A DNA stretch of 8,362 nucleotides. Source: a virus (lineage: Duplodnaviria > Heunggongvirae > Uroviricota > Caudoviricetes). Positions within the stretch are counted from its first letter, which is position 1, and each line of letters begins with the position of its first letter. Shown piece after piece: positions 62 through 7,394 of this stretch. The notes below the pieces were generated by a model. That model worked only from the letters and a program-made list of their open reading frames with translations, searched no databases and was not told the origin of the DNA. The stretch covers positions 1 to 8,362 of the IMG/VR virus record IMGVR_UViG_2675903621_000020. One strand, 5' to 3'. Both the position numbers and the translations under genes were made by a program.

Positions 62-1449
62 TTATAGCCTTTCAGGGCATATTTGGTTTGTAGCGACGAA
101 ACCAGTGATTTCACTTCTCCTGACTTCCCTGTCACGGGGTCTGTCAGGGTCAGGCGAACCAGTTCTTTTTTGCGATATTCCAGAACGATGTTGTTGTTGC
201 GATCCACCAGATCAAAACGGCTGCCTGCAAGGCTACGCCGTGCATCGACTTCATTCGGGTCAAGCTGTTTCTGCATCGCGCTTCCAGGTTGCCAGGTAAA
301 ATCGACGGCAAAACGGGTGTCATTTTCGCCCTGTTTACCCTAGCGTTGCTCCGCGCTGAAGGTCATCAGCGGGAAGGGGGTATAGTTAAGTCCAGCGGTT
401 ATGGCATGAGGATTACTTTGCCGATCATCTTTATCGAACAGGGCCACTTCATCGCCATAATACTGTTCATAGACCAGTTTACCGCCAAGGTGCGGCCAGG
501 CGGGTAGCCAGCCTTCTGCGCGTACATCCCAGCCATTGGCCGGGCGTGCTTCATAATCGTTGTCCAGTTCAGGTGCGCTGCGCCAGTTGGTCAGTCGCAA
601 ATAGCCGTTACTGCTTAATTTTAGATAGTCGCGCCAGTACTCCGCGCCAATGCCGGCGCGGGAGTGGTAACGGCTAAGATCGTGGTCGAAAAAGAAGTTG
701 ATGCCCGACATCCATGTGGGAGTGAAATGACGCCAACCCAAGCCGTTGTTAATCTGCGTACGCTCGTCAGTACGATGGAGAGTATGCTGACTGAAAAAGA
801 GATTATCAGGCGTTTCATACCACGGATGGAGAAAATCGAACTGGGAGTTCTTCAGGCTAAAATCTTCATCCACGCCCAGCGTGATTCTTGCGGTACCGAA
901 GCGGCTTAACCAGTCTGTCATTGCGCCTGAAGCCTGAGAAGAGGCCCATCCACGCGCCATATTTGCCGCTTGCTCGCTGTTCATATCCTCGGCGAGCAGA
1001 GACCCGATTTGCTGTGAAGTACTGGCTATCTGTTGCTCAAGGTTGCCACTGCTATTACCCGGTGGCGGGGTTAAATTATTTTCACTAACTTGTGCCGGGA
1101 CATCCAGTTCATCACCCTGGCGGACATTATCAAAACCTCGAGCAAACGTACGAAACTGGTTGAGTTTGCGTAACTCAGCCACCGAAATACCGAAACGTTC
1201 GGCAACGCTTTGGGCCGATTCCAGCGCTCCAAGGGTGTAGGGCACCGTATTGGCATTTGCAATGGCAATTTGTGTAGGAACTGGTTGTTGGGTTGCGGCG
1301 TTTACCACACCTTGTGCTGCCGCAGCCATAGGGAACACAAGTTGAGTTATCAGGCAGATACCCGCAGTTAAGCGGCGTAGTTTAATTCCCATCCCGCATA
1401 AGATTTGTCGGTCATTTATTTCTTCTCCACTTCTCTTCTTCGTAGCCAT
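62..1449 (-). pseudogene. yeeJ: 5' portion of an intimin/invasin-family inverse-autotransporter adhesin gene (yeeJ-like), interrupted by an in-frame TAG and truncated by the IS
   Basis: Minus-strand ORF 340-1524 in the track. ATG at 1449 has a GGAAGG Shine-Dalgarno 5 nt upstream (alternative ATG at 1476). Long signal-peptide-like N-terminus (…LTAGICLITQLVFPMAAAAQG), LysM-like segment (FGISVAELRKLNQF), then a Trp/Tyr/Gly-rich beta-barrel-like region. An in-frame TAG (plus-strand cta at 340-342) stops the frame, which resumes in the same frame to the IS junction at 61/62. Synteny with tRNA-Asn and mtfA matches my memory of E. coli K-12. Confidence 0.7.
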
Positions 1450-1646
1450 GCTTACCTTCCCTGAACGAGCTAACATAAATGCGCCCTTTCTAGCACAGCG
1501 AAAAAATGTAAATCCTGATAGCAATATGATTGAAAATTAATAACTTTTCGTTAGGCAGTTTTGGATGTGAGTTGCAAGAGGGGAGACTACTGAATAACTC
1601 AAGTTTTATAATCGAGGGGAAAATGGTGATGGCGTTCATAGCAAAA

Positions 1647-1673
1647 CGCCCTCAACCATAAAGGTCGAGGGCG
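1647..1673 (-). terminator. Candidate hairpin downstream of tRNA-Asn (possible asnT terminator)
   Basis: 7-bp inverted repeat CGCCCTC/GAGGGCG with a 13-nt loop. On the minus strand it is followed by TTTTG. A second hairpin GGCGTT-N8-AACGCC sits at 1631-1650. The loop is large and the T-run short, so confidence is low. Confidence 0.3.
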
Positions 1674-1762
1674 CTTAAGATGTTAAAAACCCGCTATCCG
1701 TTAAAAAACAATGTTCAACTAAGGTCAGTGACATTGCGCTAAAAAAGCGAATTTTTAGAATT

Positions 1763-1838
1763 TGGCTCCTCTGACTGGACTCGAACCAGTGACATACGGA
1801 TTAACAGTCCGCCGTTCTACCGACTGAACTACAGAGGA
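1763..1838 (-). tRNA. asnT: tRNA-Asn (anticodon GUU), 76 nt with encoded CCA
   Basis: Reverse complement reads TCCTCTGTAGTTCAGTCGGTAGAACGGCGGACTGTTAATCCGTATGTCACTGGTTCGAGTCCAGTCAGAGGAGCCA. 7-bp acceptor stem, anticodon loop CT-GTT-AA, T-loop GGTTCGAGTCC. The asnT name is assigned from position between mtfA and yeeJ. Confidence 0.93.
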
Positions 1839-1856
1839 ATCGTGTGAACGGGGCGC

Positions 1857-1885
1857 ATATTACTTAGCGGTACCTTGTCTGTCAA
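1857..1885 (-). promoter_or_regulatory. Sigma70 promoter for tRNA-Asn
   Basis: Minus strand reads TTGACA (1885-1880), a 17-nt spacer, TAATAT (1862-1857), then the GC-rich discriminator GCGCCCC. This sits about 19 nt upstream of the mature tRNA 5' end. AT-rich sequence lies further upstream, including a GTTAATTAAT direct repeat at 1914-1923 and 1934-1943. Confidence 0.55.
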
Positions 1886-1938
1886 CACTAAATTTCATAA
1901 GTCATTTCAATTGGTTAATTAATCTGCAAAGTTGTTAA

Positions 1939-2736
1939 TTAATGAACATTCGTCGCCGAAAACGAGTCTGTATCATTAGCGTGATGCAGTCTCTGCAAAG
2001 GATCTTGTTGATAAAATTGGCAGAAACGTTGCCACAATGAAGGGAAACGAGGAGCAAAAAGTTCTGGGGCGCTAAAGAAATATTCAGAAAGTACGGCAAA
2101 ACATTCAGCAGGATCACTGGCAGCATAAGCATCAATGCTCGCCGCATTCTCGCCAACCAATTCGATTTCTTCCTGAATGTTGTTCATTGCAGCATGAAGA
2201 TCGTGTTCCCAGCCAGCAACCTCACGCAACGGAATAAAGGGAACTCCGCTGGCGCGATCGCCGTTACGGGTGTCCAGCTTATGAGCGACTTCATGAATAA
2301 TCAGGTTAAAACCAGAAGCATCAAAAGAATCTTGTATATCCAACCAGTTCAAAACGATAGGCCCTTGCTGCCAGCTCTGACCTGACTGAACAATACGTTG
2401 GTTATGCACCAGACCGATATCGTCTTCCCATTCATCATCGACCACAAATGGCGCAGGATAAATTAAGACTTCATGAAAACCATCCAGCCATTCCAGTCCT
2501 AACTCCAGAACGGGTAGGCAAAATAGAAGTGCTATCCGGCAGCTTCTTAATGAATCCAGTTCAAAGCCCTGTAAAGGAACAAGCCGCTTTTGCTGTAAAA
2601 AACGTTCGGCAAGAGTGACTAATTTGCTTTGTTCCTGTTCCGTCAGACACGTTAAAAGGGGGATCGATAGTGCTTCCTGCCAGGGAAGGGCAGTTTGATG
2701 TGCTGATTCTTGTACTTTCCAGGGCCACTTAATCAT
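1939..2736 (-). CDS. mtfA: MtfA (Mlc titration factor A), zinc-metallopeptidase fold, 265 aa
   Basis: ORF with ATG at 2736 (the track ORF extends to a GTG at 2775). Protein begins [28 protein letters not shown] and contains the HExxH motif ([10 protein letters not shown]). Stop TAA at 1939-1941. Recognised from memory as MtfA/YeeI. Confidence 0.9.
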
Positions 2737-2829
2737 CGTTTTGCTCGCAAACTCGTCACTTGAACAAAATTGCACGGACAGGGACTGTTAAAATGCCAAA
2801 TTTCCTGGCATCATGGCAACCATCTGAAC

Positions 2830-2919
2830 GGAGAGATGCCGGAGCGGCTGAACGGACCGGTCTCGAAAACCGGAGTGGGGGCAACTCCACCGGGGGTTCA
2901 AATCCCCCTCTCTCCGCCA
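2830..2919 (+). tRNA. serU: tRNA-Ser (anticodon CGA), 90 nt with long variable arm and encoded CCA
   Basis: GGAGAGATGCCGGAGCGGCTGAACGGACCGGTCTCGAAAACCGGAGTGGGGGCAACTCCACCGGGGGTTCAAATCCCCCTCTCTCCGCCA. 7-bp acceptor stem GGAGAGA/TCTCTCC, anticodon loop CT-CGA-AA, T-loop GGTTCAAATCC. The serU name is assigned from anticodon and position beside mtfA. Confidence 0.9.
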
Positions 2920-2998
2920 AAATTCAATCACTTACACGCCATCAAGTCAGTGATAAAAATCACACTTGGAATTACTTGGAATATTTTGTTGGAATATT
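2920..2998. other. Candidate prophage attL arm between the tRNA-Ser 3' end and the int 3' end
   Basis: The integrase reads toward the tRNA 3' end, the standard tRNA-integrated prophage layout. Three direct repeats (C/G)TTGGAAT(A/T)T at 2965-2972, 2975-2982 and 2989-2995 lie where lambda P' arm-type Int sites would be. An ATCACT-N16-AGTGAT inverted repeat (2926-2953) with an IHF-like ATCAA element lies between them and the tRNA. The core cannot be delimited without attR or an empty site. Confidence 0.4.
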
Positions 2999-3997
2999 CT
3001 GGGGTAAAGGTACATCCAGTGTAGGTGAGATCTTCACTTTCCTGTCATAGATTAATACCTGTCCTTCGGTCTTGTGACCAGAGAAAAGTTGTTTATCCCG
3101 GCTACTACCTTCGTAATCTGATATCCCCTTGGCTTTAAGGTCATGGAACGTAAAATCGGTGGCGATCCCAGATATCTGTCCTGCTAAATTTCTTGCCTCA
3201 ACCCACATTTCATTAAATCCTTTATACATGTAACGGTTGCCGTACTGATTGCTGATTACATAGGCCGACTTGGGGAGTTGTTTGGCTTTTTCTATAACTG
3301 ATTGCAGGCGGGGGCTCCAGGCTTTTATCTGTTTCTTTCCTGTTTTACCTTGCTGGATAAAGATCCCATCGTTTCCGATCTGTTCCCATTTCAGAGATAA
3401 CACATCGGAAATCCTTGCTGCGCACAGATATGCAATTTCCATCGCGATAAAAACAGGCACAGGAGCCACGCTTAATACGGCCTGGTATTCTTTGTCAGTC
3501 ACATAGCGCTCTCGGTTTTTTGCCTTGAATTTACTTACACCGGCACAAGGATTAGCCTTTACATACCCTCGTTCATACCCCCAACTATAAACGCGCGACA
3601 TACTGCTTTTTTCATGGTTTGCCTGCGTTTTACTCTGCTCGCCTCTTTTGTCCATGTATCGTCTGATGTGCTCTGGTTTTACAGAATCGGCCAGCACCTT
3701 ACCGAATACGGCCAGCAACTTTTTTTGATGTTGCAGATAATCTTTTTGAGTTCTAGGACTAAGCTCGCTGTAATAGGCGCTGGCGAGAAATTTTTCCCAC
3801 AAACGCCCAAATGTCATTGCGCGATCGCGATGGTTAACCGTTTCTTCATACTTTTTCCATAATGCGGCTAAACCATCCTCGATTGCAGTTAAGGTTACAG
3901 ATTCTCTGGATGTCGGTTTCCATACATAACTATATTTATTGGGGTATACCTTTGGCGGTAATTTTTCGTGTTCGGGATTTTTCCTTCGTCTTCCCAT
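2972..3997 (-). CDS. int: Lambda-family tyrosine integrase, 341 aa
   Basis: ORF with ATG at 3997 and TAA at 2972-2974. N-terminus MGRRRKNPEHEKLPPKVYPNKYSYVWKP resembles the lambda Int arm-binding N-terminus (MGRRRSHERRDLPPNLY…, from memory). C-terminal catalytic region has HDLK and GHK…Y elements (FTFHDLKAKG…LFSGHKTEGQVLIYDR). Confidence 0.92.
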   Translation of the reverse strand: MGRRRKNPEHEKLPPKVYPNKYSYVWKPTSRESVTLTAIEDGLAALWKKYEETVNHRDRAMTFGRLWEKFLASAYYSELSPRTQKDYLQHQKKLLAVFGKVLADSVKPEHIRRYMDKRGEQSKTQANHEKSSMSRVYSWGYERGYVKANPCAGVSKFKAKNRERYVTDKEYQAVLSVAPVPVFIAMEIAYLCAARISDVLSLKWEQIGNDGIFIQQGKTGKKQIKAWSPRLQSVIEKAKQLPKSAYVISNQYGNRYMYKGFNEMWVEARNLAGQISGIATDFTFHDLKAKGISDYEGSSRDKQLFSGHKTEGQVLIYDRKVKISPTLDVPLPQNIPTKYSK

Positions 3998-4200
3998 TAG
4001 ATCGCACCGAAATCAGGTTCAGCCTCACGTGGTGGTAAAGTTTTTATACAGGTAAACAGTTCCCGACTGACGATCGGTTTTCCACTACGATTGGTATAGA
4101 ACGGAAGCCCATTTTTTATTAACCAGTTGCGCTGGTGGCTTGCATATTTGCAGCCCGTTAACGTTTGCAATTCATTTTCGGTTAAAAATATGCTGCTCAT
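3997..4200 (-). CDS. xis: Excisionase (Xis-like), 67 aa
   Basis: ATG at 4200. Stop TAA (3999-3997) overlaps the int ATG (3997-3995) as TAATG, indicating translational coupling. Small basic protein with a Trp-containing motif (…QRNWLIKNGLPFY…) loosely alignable to lambda Xis. Directly upstream of int. Confidence 0.7.
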   Translation of the reverse strand: MSSIFLTENELQTLTGCKYASHQRNWLIKNGLPFYTNRSGKPIVSRELFTCIKTLPPREAEPDFGAI

Positions 4201-4216
4201 AGCTATATCTCACAAC

Positions 4217-4244
4217 CGCCGCTAACTATATGCCGTTAGCGGCG
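4217..4244 (-). other. GC-rich stem-loop in the 58-nt gap between the exonuclease-domain gene and xis
   Basis: Perfect 10-bp inverted repeat CGCCGCTAAC (4217-4226) / GTTAGCGGCG (4235-4244) with an 8-nt loop. It lies 16 nt upstream of the xis ATG and is not followed by a U-run on the transcribed strand. Confidence 0.45.
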
Positions 4245-4258
4245 ATCCGGGTTGAACA

Positions 4259-6676
4259 TTAAAAATCAGCCTGACTCGGGATCAGTTTTTGCCAGATGGC
4301 TGAAACGTATTTTGCCTGGTAACGCGCATCGTGCAGGGCGTTATGGCGTTCACCTTCGAATGGAATAGTCGTTCTTGCGTCGAAATCCATCACCAGTCCC
4401 AGAGCAACCATCGTTCTTACATCGCGATCATTGGTGTAACGCCACGGGCAGGGGATCCCCTGCCGTTCATATGAACGGCGTAAAATCACGTTGTCGAAAG
4501 TTGCACCGTTACCCCAGACCTGAACAAAAAATTCACCGGAGTTTTCGTCGATAAATTCCCGTAATTGCAGCAGTGCATCATCCAACGGGATTTCATCGGT
4601 CAGAATGGAGGATTGTGCTTCGCGTGACTGTTTCAGCCACCACTTAATGGTGTCCCGATCGATGACCCCGCCTGCGGTTTCCAGATCGATAGTTTTGCTG
4701 AATTCTGGCCCCATATCTCCGGTTGCCGGATCAAAAAACTTACCGGCTATAGCGTTTATTGGCGCATCAGGATTTTTTCCCATTGCTTCAAGGTCAATCA
4801 TCAGATGGTGCCACAACCTGCTGGTGGATGAGATTTCATGATGACCGTTCACTTTAATTAAGGGATTTGCTGTTTCGCCAGTTTTATTATCGCTGGCGTG
4901 ATACTGATCGCTGCCAGTGTTCTCCTTGTGCAGATGTTCAGTGCCTTCCATTTCCTCCGGATCATTTTTCTGAGCTTCAGCCTGATTCTCTTCATCGAAT
5001 GTTTCCTGGTAGGTTGCGTTCCCCATCACCGCACTACAGTCAGGACAGTTGCCGCCACCGGTCTGACCACATGTGGTGCAAACTTTTTCTGGTTCTTGTT
5101 GCACTACTGGTTCTGGTTGTTTTGTTTTTGGCTCGTTTTGTAACGCATTTGGGCTGTTTTGTTCCGCTTTATCCTGATTCTGGTCATCATCATCGCGACT
5201 CTGGATCCCCTTCACCCATTTTGGATCATTCGGGTCGCTAATCCCTTCAACAAATTCTCCGCGAGAAGCAGCCAGTAATTTATCTGCATCGACAGGATTT
5301 TTGGGTGGAATGTTTTTCTTGGCTTCATGGAGTTCTGCACGCAGTTTCTGATATTTCGCATCAACAGAATTTATCTGTGGCTGAGCATCCATCGACTGCG
5401 TGTCCTGATTATGTTCAGTTGTATCCGGTTCCACTGCTTCAGTCGTTGCCTGTTCATCTGCCATTGCGCCAGATGGCTGCGGTTTTTCTTCATCATCCTG
5501 TTTTCCTTCTTTTGTTACACGCTGCGGCATCGGGGCAGAGGAGCGGCCACAGGCAATATCCACGATTTCCGGATCAGGGGTGGCATGATCGGTTTCAGTC
5601 AGCACCTTATTCAGGTATTCGGTGACACGGTGGGGAGTAGCCTCTATACCAATTGGTGCTTCTTTCACGGACGCAACCACGATGGCGCGGGAGTAATCCT
5701 TGTGGCCCGGCATGGTGATGAATTTGCTGAAAAACACAGTAAATGGCGGTTTATTTTCAGCGATAATTTCCTCAATGCGTTTAGCGTGTGCGGGATGAAG
5801 GTTATAAATATCCACGTCCATTGAACGGGCCAGTACGCCAGTGGCTACGTCACGCGCCACTGACGCATCATCGTGGACAAAACCTTCGCCGCGATCGGTA
5901 AGAATGCCGCCGCCAGCGTTAGCGCCGGATGGCGTGCGGCTGATGCGTGAAACACTATTTCCTTTCATCCACTCTTTTGTAAGCAGACCGCGATCGGTGT
6001 AGTCAGCGCCCAGGTATGCTTCGATAAAAGAGGTCATCAGTCCCAGGTCCGAATTTACGGGGGCGGGGAAAACTTTGTCAGTGTCTCGCACCAGTTTGTA
6101 CAAATCCCGAATCTCCAGCGGTTCGAGTTGCACTGCTTTATTTGAGATGGCCAGCGCGGTAACGGCGGGAAGTTTTTCATCCTGTGCGTTATGTAATGCG
6201 CGCAGTTTGTCCAGTGAAACGTGCGTGACCGGTTTTTCGCTGTTGTGTTGCGCCAGCCAGCGAACAGGCAGAATCTGACCTGAAACCGGAAGAAGCATAT
6301 TCTCCTCAATCTTAGCCATGTCTTCGCCGTTGACGTTGGTATTGTCAGTACTGGCTGGTTTGTCCGGAACAGAGGGCGCGATAAGTATCATTGTGATACC
6401 ATCTTCTCCGCCTTTTTCGTATCGGTTGCAGAATTCAGTATCAAACACACCTTCCGGTGGAAGGTCATTCACAACGGGTAAATGGACGCGGATGGGTTTT
6501 TTAAAATCCTCTTCGTCAAATCCGGCATCGTCCATTGCAGCAACACCGCGTGATATTGCAACCGATAATTTTTTTGCTGTGCGCCAGTAAAAACCACCTT
6601 TAATCCCAAGGCGTTTTCTGACTTTGTCATTTTTGGCTTCGTAATATAGTGCAATTTCTTCTTTATCAGCGTTCAT
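4259..6676 (-). CDS. 805-aa multidomain prophage protein: N-terminal domain of unknown function, acidic disordered linker with a CxxC-x7-CxxC knuckle, C-terminal DEDDh (DnaQ-like) 3'-5' exonuclease domain
   Basis: ATG at 6676 with a GAGG Shine-Dalgarno 7 nt upstream; TAA at 4259-4261. The C-terminal ~185 aa carry motifs in canonical order: Exo I DxE (MIDLE, res. 628-630, or TIDLETAGG, 664-666), Exo II ([13 protein letters not shown]728), Exo III H-x4-D (HNALHD, H778/D783). Residues ~385-620 are D/E/Q/P/K-rich low complexity containing C533-x2-C536-x7-C544-x2-C547. Confidence 0.85.
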
Positions 6677-6768
6677 TGATAAACCTCATAACCATTTTAA
6701 GGATGAACAAATTCCTGCCATTGCTGGTATTTTTAATCCGTTGGTATGGCGTTAATATGGCTGGAGGG

Positions 6769-6957
6769 TTATCCAGCCGGTATTTCGTTATTCAGGTTCA
6801 GCGACACTTTTTTTAACGGGAGGCATTCACCGGGGATTTTTTGTTCGTCCCTTACCTGAATGCAGGATGACTTACTGTCATAAATTCCGGTAATTACATT
6901 CTGCGGCTCACCCGTTATAAGAAAAACGGTCATCACCAGTGCAAATGCTGAGGTCAC
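6769..6957 (-). CDS. Small hypothetical protein (62 aa) with a hydrophobic N-terminus, coupled to the upstream small ORF
   Basis: GTG start at 6957 overlaps the upstream stop as GTGA. GGAG Shine-Dalgarno 5 nt upstream. N-terminus MTSAFALVMTVFLITG is signal/TM-like; two Cys. Stop TAA at 6769-6771. A 54-aa variant would start at ATG 6933. I recognise no homolog. Confidence 0.4.
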   Translation of the reverse strand: MTSAFALVMTVFLITGEPQNVITGIYDSKSSCIQVRDEQKIPGECLPLKKVSLNLNNEIPAG

Positions 6958-7142
6958 TGCTGTTCTCCGAAAATACCAAGTTCAAGAAGAGCAATTCGGG
7001 AAAGTATGGAATTATCATTGAGCAGATAAGGCTCATATTTCCGCATATTAATGGCATCCTCAGTAAACGCTTTATTACTGAGCAGAACACCAATATCAAA
7101 ACAACCTTCAGACGTATTAACGTTTGGTAATAACGTTTCCAT
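6954..7142 (-). CDS. Small hypothetical protein (62 aa), first gene of the leftward operon
   Basis: ATG at 7142 with a strong Shine-Dalgarno GAGGA 7 nt upstream (minus strand …TTGAGGACGCGATA-ATG). Protein METLLPNVNTSEGCFDIGVLLSNKAFTEDAINMRKYEPYLLNDNSILSRIALLELGIFGEQQ. Stop TGA at 6954-6956. The track ORF extends upstream to a GTG at 7247 with no ribosome-binding site. Confidence 0.5.
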   Translation of the reverse strand: METLLPNVNTSEGCFDIGVLLSNKAFTEDAINMRKYEPYLLNDNSILSRIALLELGIFGEQQ

Positions 7143-7159
7143 TATCGCGTCCTCAACAA

Positions 7160-7307
7160 TGAATTTTGTGATGCAGTGCCTGGTGCCTCCAGGTGACGTT
7201 AACCAGTTAACAATTAACGCCGGATACAGAGAATCCACCCATAACACTGTTTTTGGTTTTAACTGTTCCGCGTGCGCTTAGCCGCATTCACCGCATCACA
7301 AAATTCA
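7160..7307. repeat. Perfect 15-bp inverted repeat pair flanking a 118-bp segment next to the leftward operon start
   Basis: TGAATTTTGTGATGC at 7160-7174 and its reverse complement GCATCACAAAATTCA at 7293-7307 (17 of 18 with one flanking base each side). The left arm abuts the Shine-Dalgarno of ORF 6954-7142. The enclosed segment contains GTTAAC-ca-GTTAAC-aa-TTAAC (7198-7218). Confidence 0.6.
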
Positions 7308-7394
7308 CTTTAAAAAGGGCGGCAGAGCAGTCACGGAGTAAAACTGATACCGCCAAATGTCACCAGAAAATTGATAACAGAGGGCGTTGTAGCG

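Follow-up and report, generated by a model that had tools for sequence, protein, structure and literature searches.

An integrase gene that reads toward the 3' end of a tRNA gene, and that carries three short direct repeats at its own 3' end, raises two questions: whether a phage has integrated at this tRNA, and what the repeats are for. We addressed both in a window of 8,362 nucleotides, by which we mean the whole stretch of DNA that was analysed. Coordinates refer to this window, and attachment (att) positions are counted from the middle anticodon base of the tRNA-Ser(CGA) gene serU (window 2865). The gene order of the window agrees with E. coli (Table 1), and to the right of serU stands a block of phage early-left genes, all on the minus strand. 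The first-pass annotation had described an int gene pointing at the tRNA 3' end and overlapped by a small xis gene, and this is what ARAGORN, Pfam and PHROG show; the xis stop and the int start overlap by one base in TAATG. We consider it likely that 2830–4200 is the attL end and int–xis module of a lambdoid prophage, 49 kb long and of the Sp14/CP-933U type, inserted in serU, and that the repeats are P' arm sites of the integrase (Int).

Table 1. Features of the window and of the attachment sites, with the arm motifs of related phages.
Feature	Position	Strand	Remarks
yeeJ, 5' part	340–1524	-	matches E. coli order
asnT	1763–1838	-	matches E. coli order
mtfA	1939–2775	-	matches E. coli order
serU, tRNA-Ser(CGA)	2830–2919	+	ARAGORN
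Strand-exchange stretch GGTCTCGAAAACCGGAGT	2859–2876	+	only stretch identical in attL, attR and K-12 attB
Anticodon loop CTCGAAA, 7 nt	2862–2868		anticodon 2864–2866
Candidate IHF site, H'-like, ATTCAATCACTTA	2922–2934	+	+57 to +69; one mismatch to WATCAANNNNTTR
Candidate IHF sites, P arm	-92 to -80 and -37 to -25	-	at most one mismatch to WATCAANNNNTTR
Palindrome-like element GTGATAAAAATCAC	2950–2963		between H'-like site and P'1
P'1-like candidate arm site CTTGGAATTA	2965–2974	+	+100 to +109; overlaps int stop codon
P'2-like candidate arm site CTTGGAATAT	2975–2984	+	+110 to +119; in last int codons
P'3-like candidate arm site GTTGGAATAT	2988–2997	+	+123 to +132; in last int codons
int, tyrosine integrase, 341 aa	2972–3997	-	Pfam Phage_integrase, E 2.5e-11
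Putative excisionase/directionality factor, DUF4224, 67 aa	3997–4200	-	Pfam; PHROG 'excisionase', E 7e-21
Exonuclease, 805 aa	4259–6676	-	
DUF1482 and dicB	beyond exonuclease	-	
Arm motif, ST64B and Kp4884-3 (P' arm only)			TGAGAAAA
Arm motif, BUCT709			TTAGAATA
Arm motif, L072 and L084			AAGAATAT
Arm motif, Evi and L089 (P' arm only)			TTGGTATA
Arm motif, ZF40 (tRNA-Leu site)			TTCCTAAT

Positions 62–8279 are 100.0% identical to several O55:H7 genomes (megablast), with two base differences from E. coli O55:H7 CB9615. The two ends of the window, 1–61 and 8280–8362, are the termini of one multicopy IS3-family element in the same orientation, which we take to be IS629-like. IS3-family insertions thus lie at 61/62, where yeeJ is interrupted, and at 8279/8280, in the early region of the prophage. 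Six O55:H7-type complete genomes among the matches listed (five of them labelled O55:H7) match 62–8279 only, and are therefore without these two insertions. In yeeJ, annotated at 7 kb in K-12, there is also an in-frame TAG at codon 351 (340–342, minus strand), beyond which the reading frame goes on; given this codon and the insertion at 61/62, the adhesin gene is a pseudogene in the window's genome. On the phage side, the 805-aa exonuclease combines an Exonuc_VIII N-terminal region with a C-terminal Rv2179c-like 3'–5' exoribonuclease domain, a domain that in ST64B stands alone as a separate 190-aa gene.

Evidence for the far end of the prophage comes from the CB9615 genome and not from the window's own genome, which has an IS3-family element in the prophage at 8279/8280. 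In CB9615 the run of phage genes is about 49 kb long; it includes lambda-like head and tail genes and ends with espJ and a gene with EspF repeats, both adjoining attR. Between espJ and yodB lies the second tRNA 3' segment that an integration event should leave: a 61-nt copy running from the anticodon stem to CCA (GGTCTCGAAAACCGGAGTAGGGGCAACTCTACC...CCGCCA), beyond which comes the flank that K-12 has after serU. The distance between the two copies of GGTCTCGAAAACCGGAGT in CB9615 is 48,949 bp, which is the prophage length. The empty site is seen in K-12, where the order is yodB–serU–mtfA–asnT–yeeJ with nothing between yodB, serU and mtfA, so the statement in the first-pass annotation that K-12 has ordinary backbone genes at serU was correct. 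The int–serU junction is present in only 1,092 of 5,426 complete E. coli genomes. The element is thus strain-specific cargo, as had been proposed, and an ancient fixed remnant is ruled out; with attR, the empty site and a strain-limited junction all in hand, integration at tRNA-Ser(CGA) is established.

Two base differences locate the exchange. G2877 and C2888 at attL are A and T both in K-12 serU and in the displaced copy at attR; attL holds a full tRNA gene and attR a 61-nt 3' copy with the K-12 bases. It follows that the 3' part of the tRNA at attL is phage DNA and that the exchange took place to the left of 2877. serU at attL is therefore a hybrid gene, with a bacterial 5' part and a 3' part supplied by the phage. 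The two substitutions are a compensatory pair that keeps a base pair of the variable arm; as a side observation, lysogens express a slightly different tRNA-Ser(CGA), since a phage-supplied G–C replaces A–T there. The exchange stretch is bounded on its left at 2859, where phage and bacterial sequences diverge, and on its right by the first phage-specific base, 2877. Within its 18 bp are the loop and, from the anticodon stem (CCGGT/ACCGG), the 3' strand and some of the 5' strand. By analogy with other integrases that target tRNA genes, the 7-nt anticodon loop is most likely the overlap region here, and the stem arms would be the core sites.

The window has exactly three copies of TTGGAAT, at 2966, 2976 and 2989 (+101, +111 and +124). 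The first-pass annotation had given the three repeats at the int 3' end a common form, (C/G)TTGGAAT(A/T)T; the three repeats are indeed present, except that copy 1, CTTGGAATTA, departs from this form in its last base, and the copies read TTGGAAT(A/T)(T/A). Their number is unremarkable, with three copies of the plain 7-mer in the window against 2.15 expected, and five of the degenerate 10-mer with one mismatch against three expected, which is not above chance. What is unusual is their clustering and their recurrence at attR rather than the count. At attR of CB9615, TTGGAAT is found in direct orientation at -119 (CTTGGAATATTCTG) and inverted at -54 (ATTCCAA), and the 14-mer TTGGAATATTCTG recurs there, at about -119, together with the base that precedes it in the third repeat. 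Over 59.9 kb of CB9615 and both strands there are seven copies of TTGGAAT, five of them between -119 and +130 of the att core; one of the other two is at -288 and one in the remaining 59 kb. The copy at -288 was dropped as a chance occurrence; it is absent from all relatives. When the two arms are joined as attP (-130 to +140), the commonest 7-mer is AATATTC, which overlaps the arm motif and has six copies, and none of 2,000 dinucleotide-preserving shuffles of attP had any 7-mer above five copies.

Lambda attP has arm sites P1, P2 and P'1–P'3 and IHF sites H1, H2 and H' (PMC4880445). The positions found here suggest a lambda-like set of five arm sites, P1, P2 and P'1–P'3, and the three repeats beside int are very probably the sites that Int grips during integration. 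The first-pass annotation had likened the placement of the repeats to that of the lambda P' sites, and two further results favour this comparison: the motif occurs in the other arm as well, and the positions are conserved in relatives while the motif changes.

The comparison set comprised ten intact attP sites whose integrases are 50–95% identical (ST64B, ZF40, BUCT709, Evi and IMG/VR contigs). Nine of the ten keep four or five positions to about ±1 bp; in ZF40 the P' pair is shifted. A direct copy lies at -117 to -119 and an inverted copy at -53 to -55, each in nine of the ten sites. The P' copies lie at +100 to +102, +111 to +113 and +123 to +126 and number two to four in tandem, starting at +100 to +102; ZF40, which uses a tRNA-Leu site, is the exception, with two P' copies only, at +136 and +148. 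Six arm motifs are found across these attP sites: TTGGAATA, TTGGTATA, TTAGAATA, AAGAATAT, TGAGAAAA and TTCCTAAT. More distant relatives, with Int 50–61% identical to that of the window, have repeats at the same places in other sequences. Four IMG/VR contigs with Int 94–95% identical have an intact attP and P arms that otherwise align poorly with the O55 arm; within this group, four invariant islands are left in the P arm: GCTTGGAATATTCT, TGATTTTTC, ATTTATTCCAA and TTGATTTT.

Two relatives depart from the common arrangement in ways worth recording. In phage Evi (L006, 3520–3850) the attP contains a tRNA-Ser(UGA) fragment and has TTGGTATA as its arm motif, and as a whole it is turned round with respect to int: the P arm is next to int and the three tandem sites lie on the far side; an inverted site at -54 was looked for in this attP and not found. 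In the IMG/VR contig L057, a 13-bp duplication has given a fourth tandem P' repeat at +137; the int frame of this contig is also longer.

Repeats that lie in a coding end could also be a by-product of the int C-terminal sequence, or chance repeats in A+T-rich DNA; copies 2 and 3 do fall inside the last nine int codons, and the whole-window count is at the level of chance. We give this explanation next to no weight: the attR copies lie outside any int coding sequence, the positions are held to about ±1 bp across the compared attP sites with differing motifs, and none of the 2,000 shuffles had as many repeats as were observed. The ST64B repeats, 34 nt past the int stop codon and so not in its ORF, speak against coding constraint, which we reject as the cause.

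The attachment region also has candidate sites for IHF. With the consensus WATCAANNNNTTR and at most one mismatch, a threshold to be read against an A+T-rich sequence, we found the three matches listed in Table 1, and most relatives have matches at or near the same three places. An H'-like match lies at +56 or +57 in eight of the ten attP sites and at +70 in ZF40; BUCT709 has no H'-like match with at most one mismatch, and ST64B has none at -92 or -37 under the same limit. The cores of the -92 and -37 matches coincide with the two invariant TGATTTT islands in the P arm. A second IHF-like match, at +78 to +90, was dropped because it occurs in the O55 element only. The palindrome-like element is conserved: O55 and ST64B have it as GTGAT(A/G)AAAATCAC, the 95% group as GTGACAAAAATCAC; the ST64B counterpart of this near-palindrome is GTGATGAAAATCAC.

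If the repeats are arm sites, Int should have a domain to bind them. Its closest solved relative is lambda Int (1z1b; phmmer E 6.7e-11), with about 18–21% identity and an alignment that runs from residue 68 onward. The AlphaFold2 model of Int (pLDDT 87) has, ahead of this region, strands at 17–19, 23–26 and 34–38 and a helix at 43–59, with a pLDDT of about 88. The best Foldseek match is full-length lambda Int (1z1b_A; 352 columns, TM 0.68), as against 286 columns to a construct of lambda Int residues 75–356. The model thus gives Int the extra N-terminal domain by which lambda Int binds arm sites. Because Pfam reported no arm-binding domain on Int and a phmmer search of residues 1–70 against the PDB gave no match, the call of this domain rests on the predicted structure. 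Variation within the family is greatest over the N-terminal 60 residues (32–53% identity, versus 52–66% for the rest). Across relatives the N-domain groups with the arm motif, an association that is confounded by shared ancestry.

By alignment with lambda Int, the catalytic residues are assigned as R195, K218, H285, K288, H308 and Y317. The Arg II position (lambda R311) is thus occupied by Lys (K288, window 3134–3136), a residue found at this position in 0.5% of tyrosine recombinases (Gibb et al. 2010; PMC2943603). Lys stands there in 104 of 120 homologues, all of those that match FHD[LI]KAKG, with the other 16 lying outside the pattern; ST64B IntA and ZF40 Int are among the Lys-bearing proteins, and the more distant relatives F10, KS5, Xfas53 and Si3 have Arg. 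The Cre variant R292K is active with a ligation defect (PMC2943603). The catalytic domain of Int is recognizable despite Lys288, and ST64B IntA, which has the same Lys, recombines attP with attB in vitro (PMC12455584).

The neighbouring DUF4224 gene offers another candidate for the protein that binds the repeats. Its predicted structure is a small winged helix-turn-helix with weak matches to the DNA-binding domains of RacA, BldC and MerR (Foldseek E 0.15), and the same Foldseek search gave no match to solved excisionases; a homologue search returned seven close relatives only. DUF4224 proteins of the clade share a conserved C-terminal (E)EP(N/D)F(D/G)AI tail (PNFDAI or PDFGAI; window 3997–4020), with the rest 34–43% identical, and by analogy with lambda Xis this tail could be the part that contacts Int. 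Excisionases also bind direct repeats in att arms, and DUF4224 proteins, too, differ between phage subgroups, so the repeats might be targets of the excisionase or of another accessory protein instead of Int. We regard this as improbable, because three P' and two P sites, one of them inverted, form the arm pattern of lambda Int, whereas lambda Xis has its sites in the P arm only (PMC4880445). Moreover, the Xis of ZF40 is 66–68% identical to those of BUCT709 and L066 and the arm motifs are unrelated, which indicates that the motif tracks Int rather than Xis. Int remains our preferred partner for the repeats.

The element is the O55:H7 version of a known 49-kb lambda-like prophage of the Sp14/CP-933U type. 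In O157:H7 Sakai, Sp14 lies between yodB and tRNA-Ser(cga) (PMC8190617); tccP is carried on CP-933U/Sp14 (PMC2884950), to which a review table also assigns EspJ (PMC8065619). O157:H7 genomes match at the junction with about 93% identity, and in the ST64B record the integrase of that phage is noted as similar to the CP-933U integrase.

What is known of Sp14 bears on whether the module still works. Circular Sp14 DNA was found after mitomycin C, at a low level; several late functions are defective, and in the view of Asadulghani et al. the Sp14 Xis is probably non-functional (PMC2669165). The arm sites could accordingly be genuine and the prophage in this strain defective, its module a fossil that no longer integrates or excises. 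Those three findings, the late-function defects, the Xis judgement and the mere traces of circular forms, speak for such decay, as do the IS3-family insertions at 61/62 and 8279/8280 in the window's genome. We nevertheless think it unlikely: int and xis are full-length, int has kept the family's invariant residues, CB9615 has two intact att arms, and circular Sp14 was, after all, detectable (PMC2669165).

We propose the following sequence of events. The attP site would carry the tRNA-Ser 3' part (anticodon stem through CCA), and Int would exchange strands within the 18 bp at 2859–2876, most likely across the 7-nt anticodon loop. Integration would thereby rebuild an intact tRNA at attL from phage DNA and leave the original 3' part displaced at attR. 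Int may use its small N-terminal domain to bind the three P' repeats (2965–2997) and the P-arm sites at -119 and -54, and the three IHF-consensus sites would bend the arms back, allowing arm-bound Int subunits to reach the core. With a bend centred near +63, for example, the P' sites (+101 to +131) would come to lie on the core, over about +25 to -5. The excisionase in this scheme would be the DUF4224 protein.

It is already known that the prophage carries the type III effectors EspJ and TccP/EspFu in EHEC and EPEC, and the att anatomy of an EspJ/TccP prophage tells how the element moves. The map of arm and IHF sites is a new and well-supported prediction for a prophage already known in itself; no arm-site mapping for the ST64B, Sp14 or serU integrases was found in the literature searched. 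The map, with its five arm sites, its three IHF-like sites and its anticodon-loop crossover, offers predictions that can be tested, for which the integrase family had no precedent in that literature. The general picture of lambda-type site-specific recombination is unchanged, and the result is sound and unsurprising. Related integrases with the same type of core and different arm motifs could aid studies of how the N-domain reads DNA, or serve as orthogonal integration tools.

A wider reading extends to the clade of CP-933U, ST64B and ZF40, and we lean slightly towards it. The clade may have one rigid attP scaffold, with at least six exchanges of arm sequence and Int N-domain upon it, which would form a natural series of specificity swaps. 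The scaffold would consist of five arm sites and mostly three IHF-consensus sites, fixed to about ±1 bp around a class II tRNA anticodon core, and all members would work with Lys at Arg II. If true, the series could yield an arm-recognition code or mutually orthogonal integrases.

Among the closest known systems, Sp14/CP-933U shares the yodB/tRNA-Ser(cga) site and has espJ and a tccP-like gene at the far end. The O55:H7 version differs in length (48.9 kb versus about 43.7 kb), in a diverged P arm and, in the window's own strain, in the extra IS3-family insertions. ST64B belongs to the same Int clade (57% identity) and agrees in its tRNA-Ser(CGA) anticodon core and in the spacing of the five sites; its arm motif, by contrast, is TGAGAAAA, and its repeats lie outside the int ORF.

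Lambda is a further comparison. There the P' cluster lies at roughly +50 to +80 from the crossover, whereas the P' sites of the window are near +100 to +130, about 45 bp further from the core, a distance over which we infer the bridging geometry. The cluster lies further out than that of lambda because 54 nt of tRNA, carried in attP, stand between core and arm; the core itself is in the tRNA anticodon stem-loop, and the H'-like site comes after the tRNA 3' end. In sequence the arm motif bears no relation to that of lambda, Arg II is replaced by Lys, and the putative Xis is a DUF4224 protein rather than a member of the lambda Xis family. Similar to lambda, the 3' end of int abuts the P' arm and xis overlaps int; there are five arm-type repeats, two in P and three in tandem in P', with three IHF-consensus sites between arms and core, and the integrase is predicted to share the three-domain heterobivalent fold.
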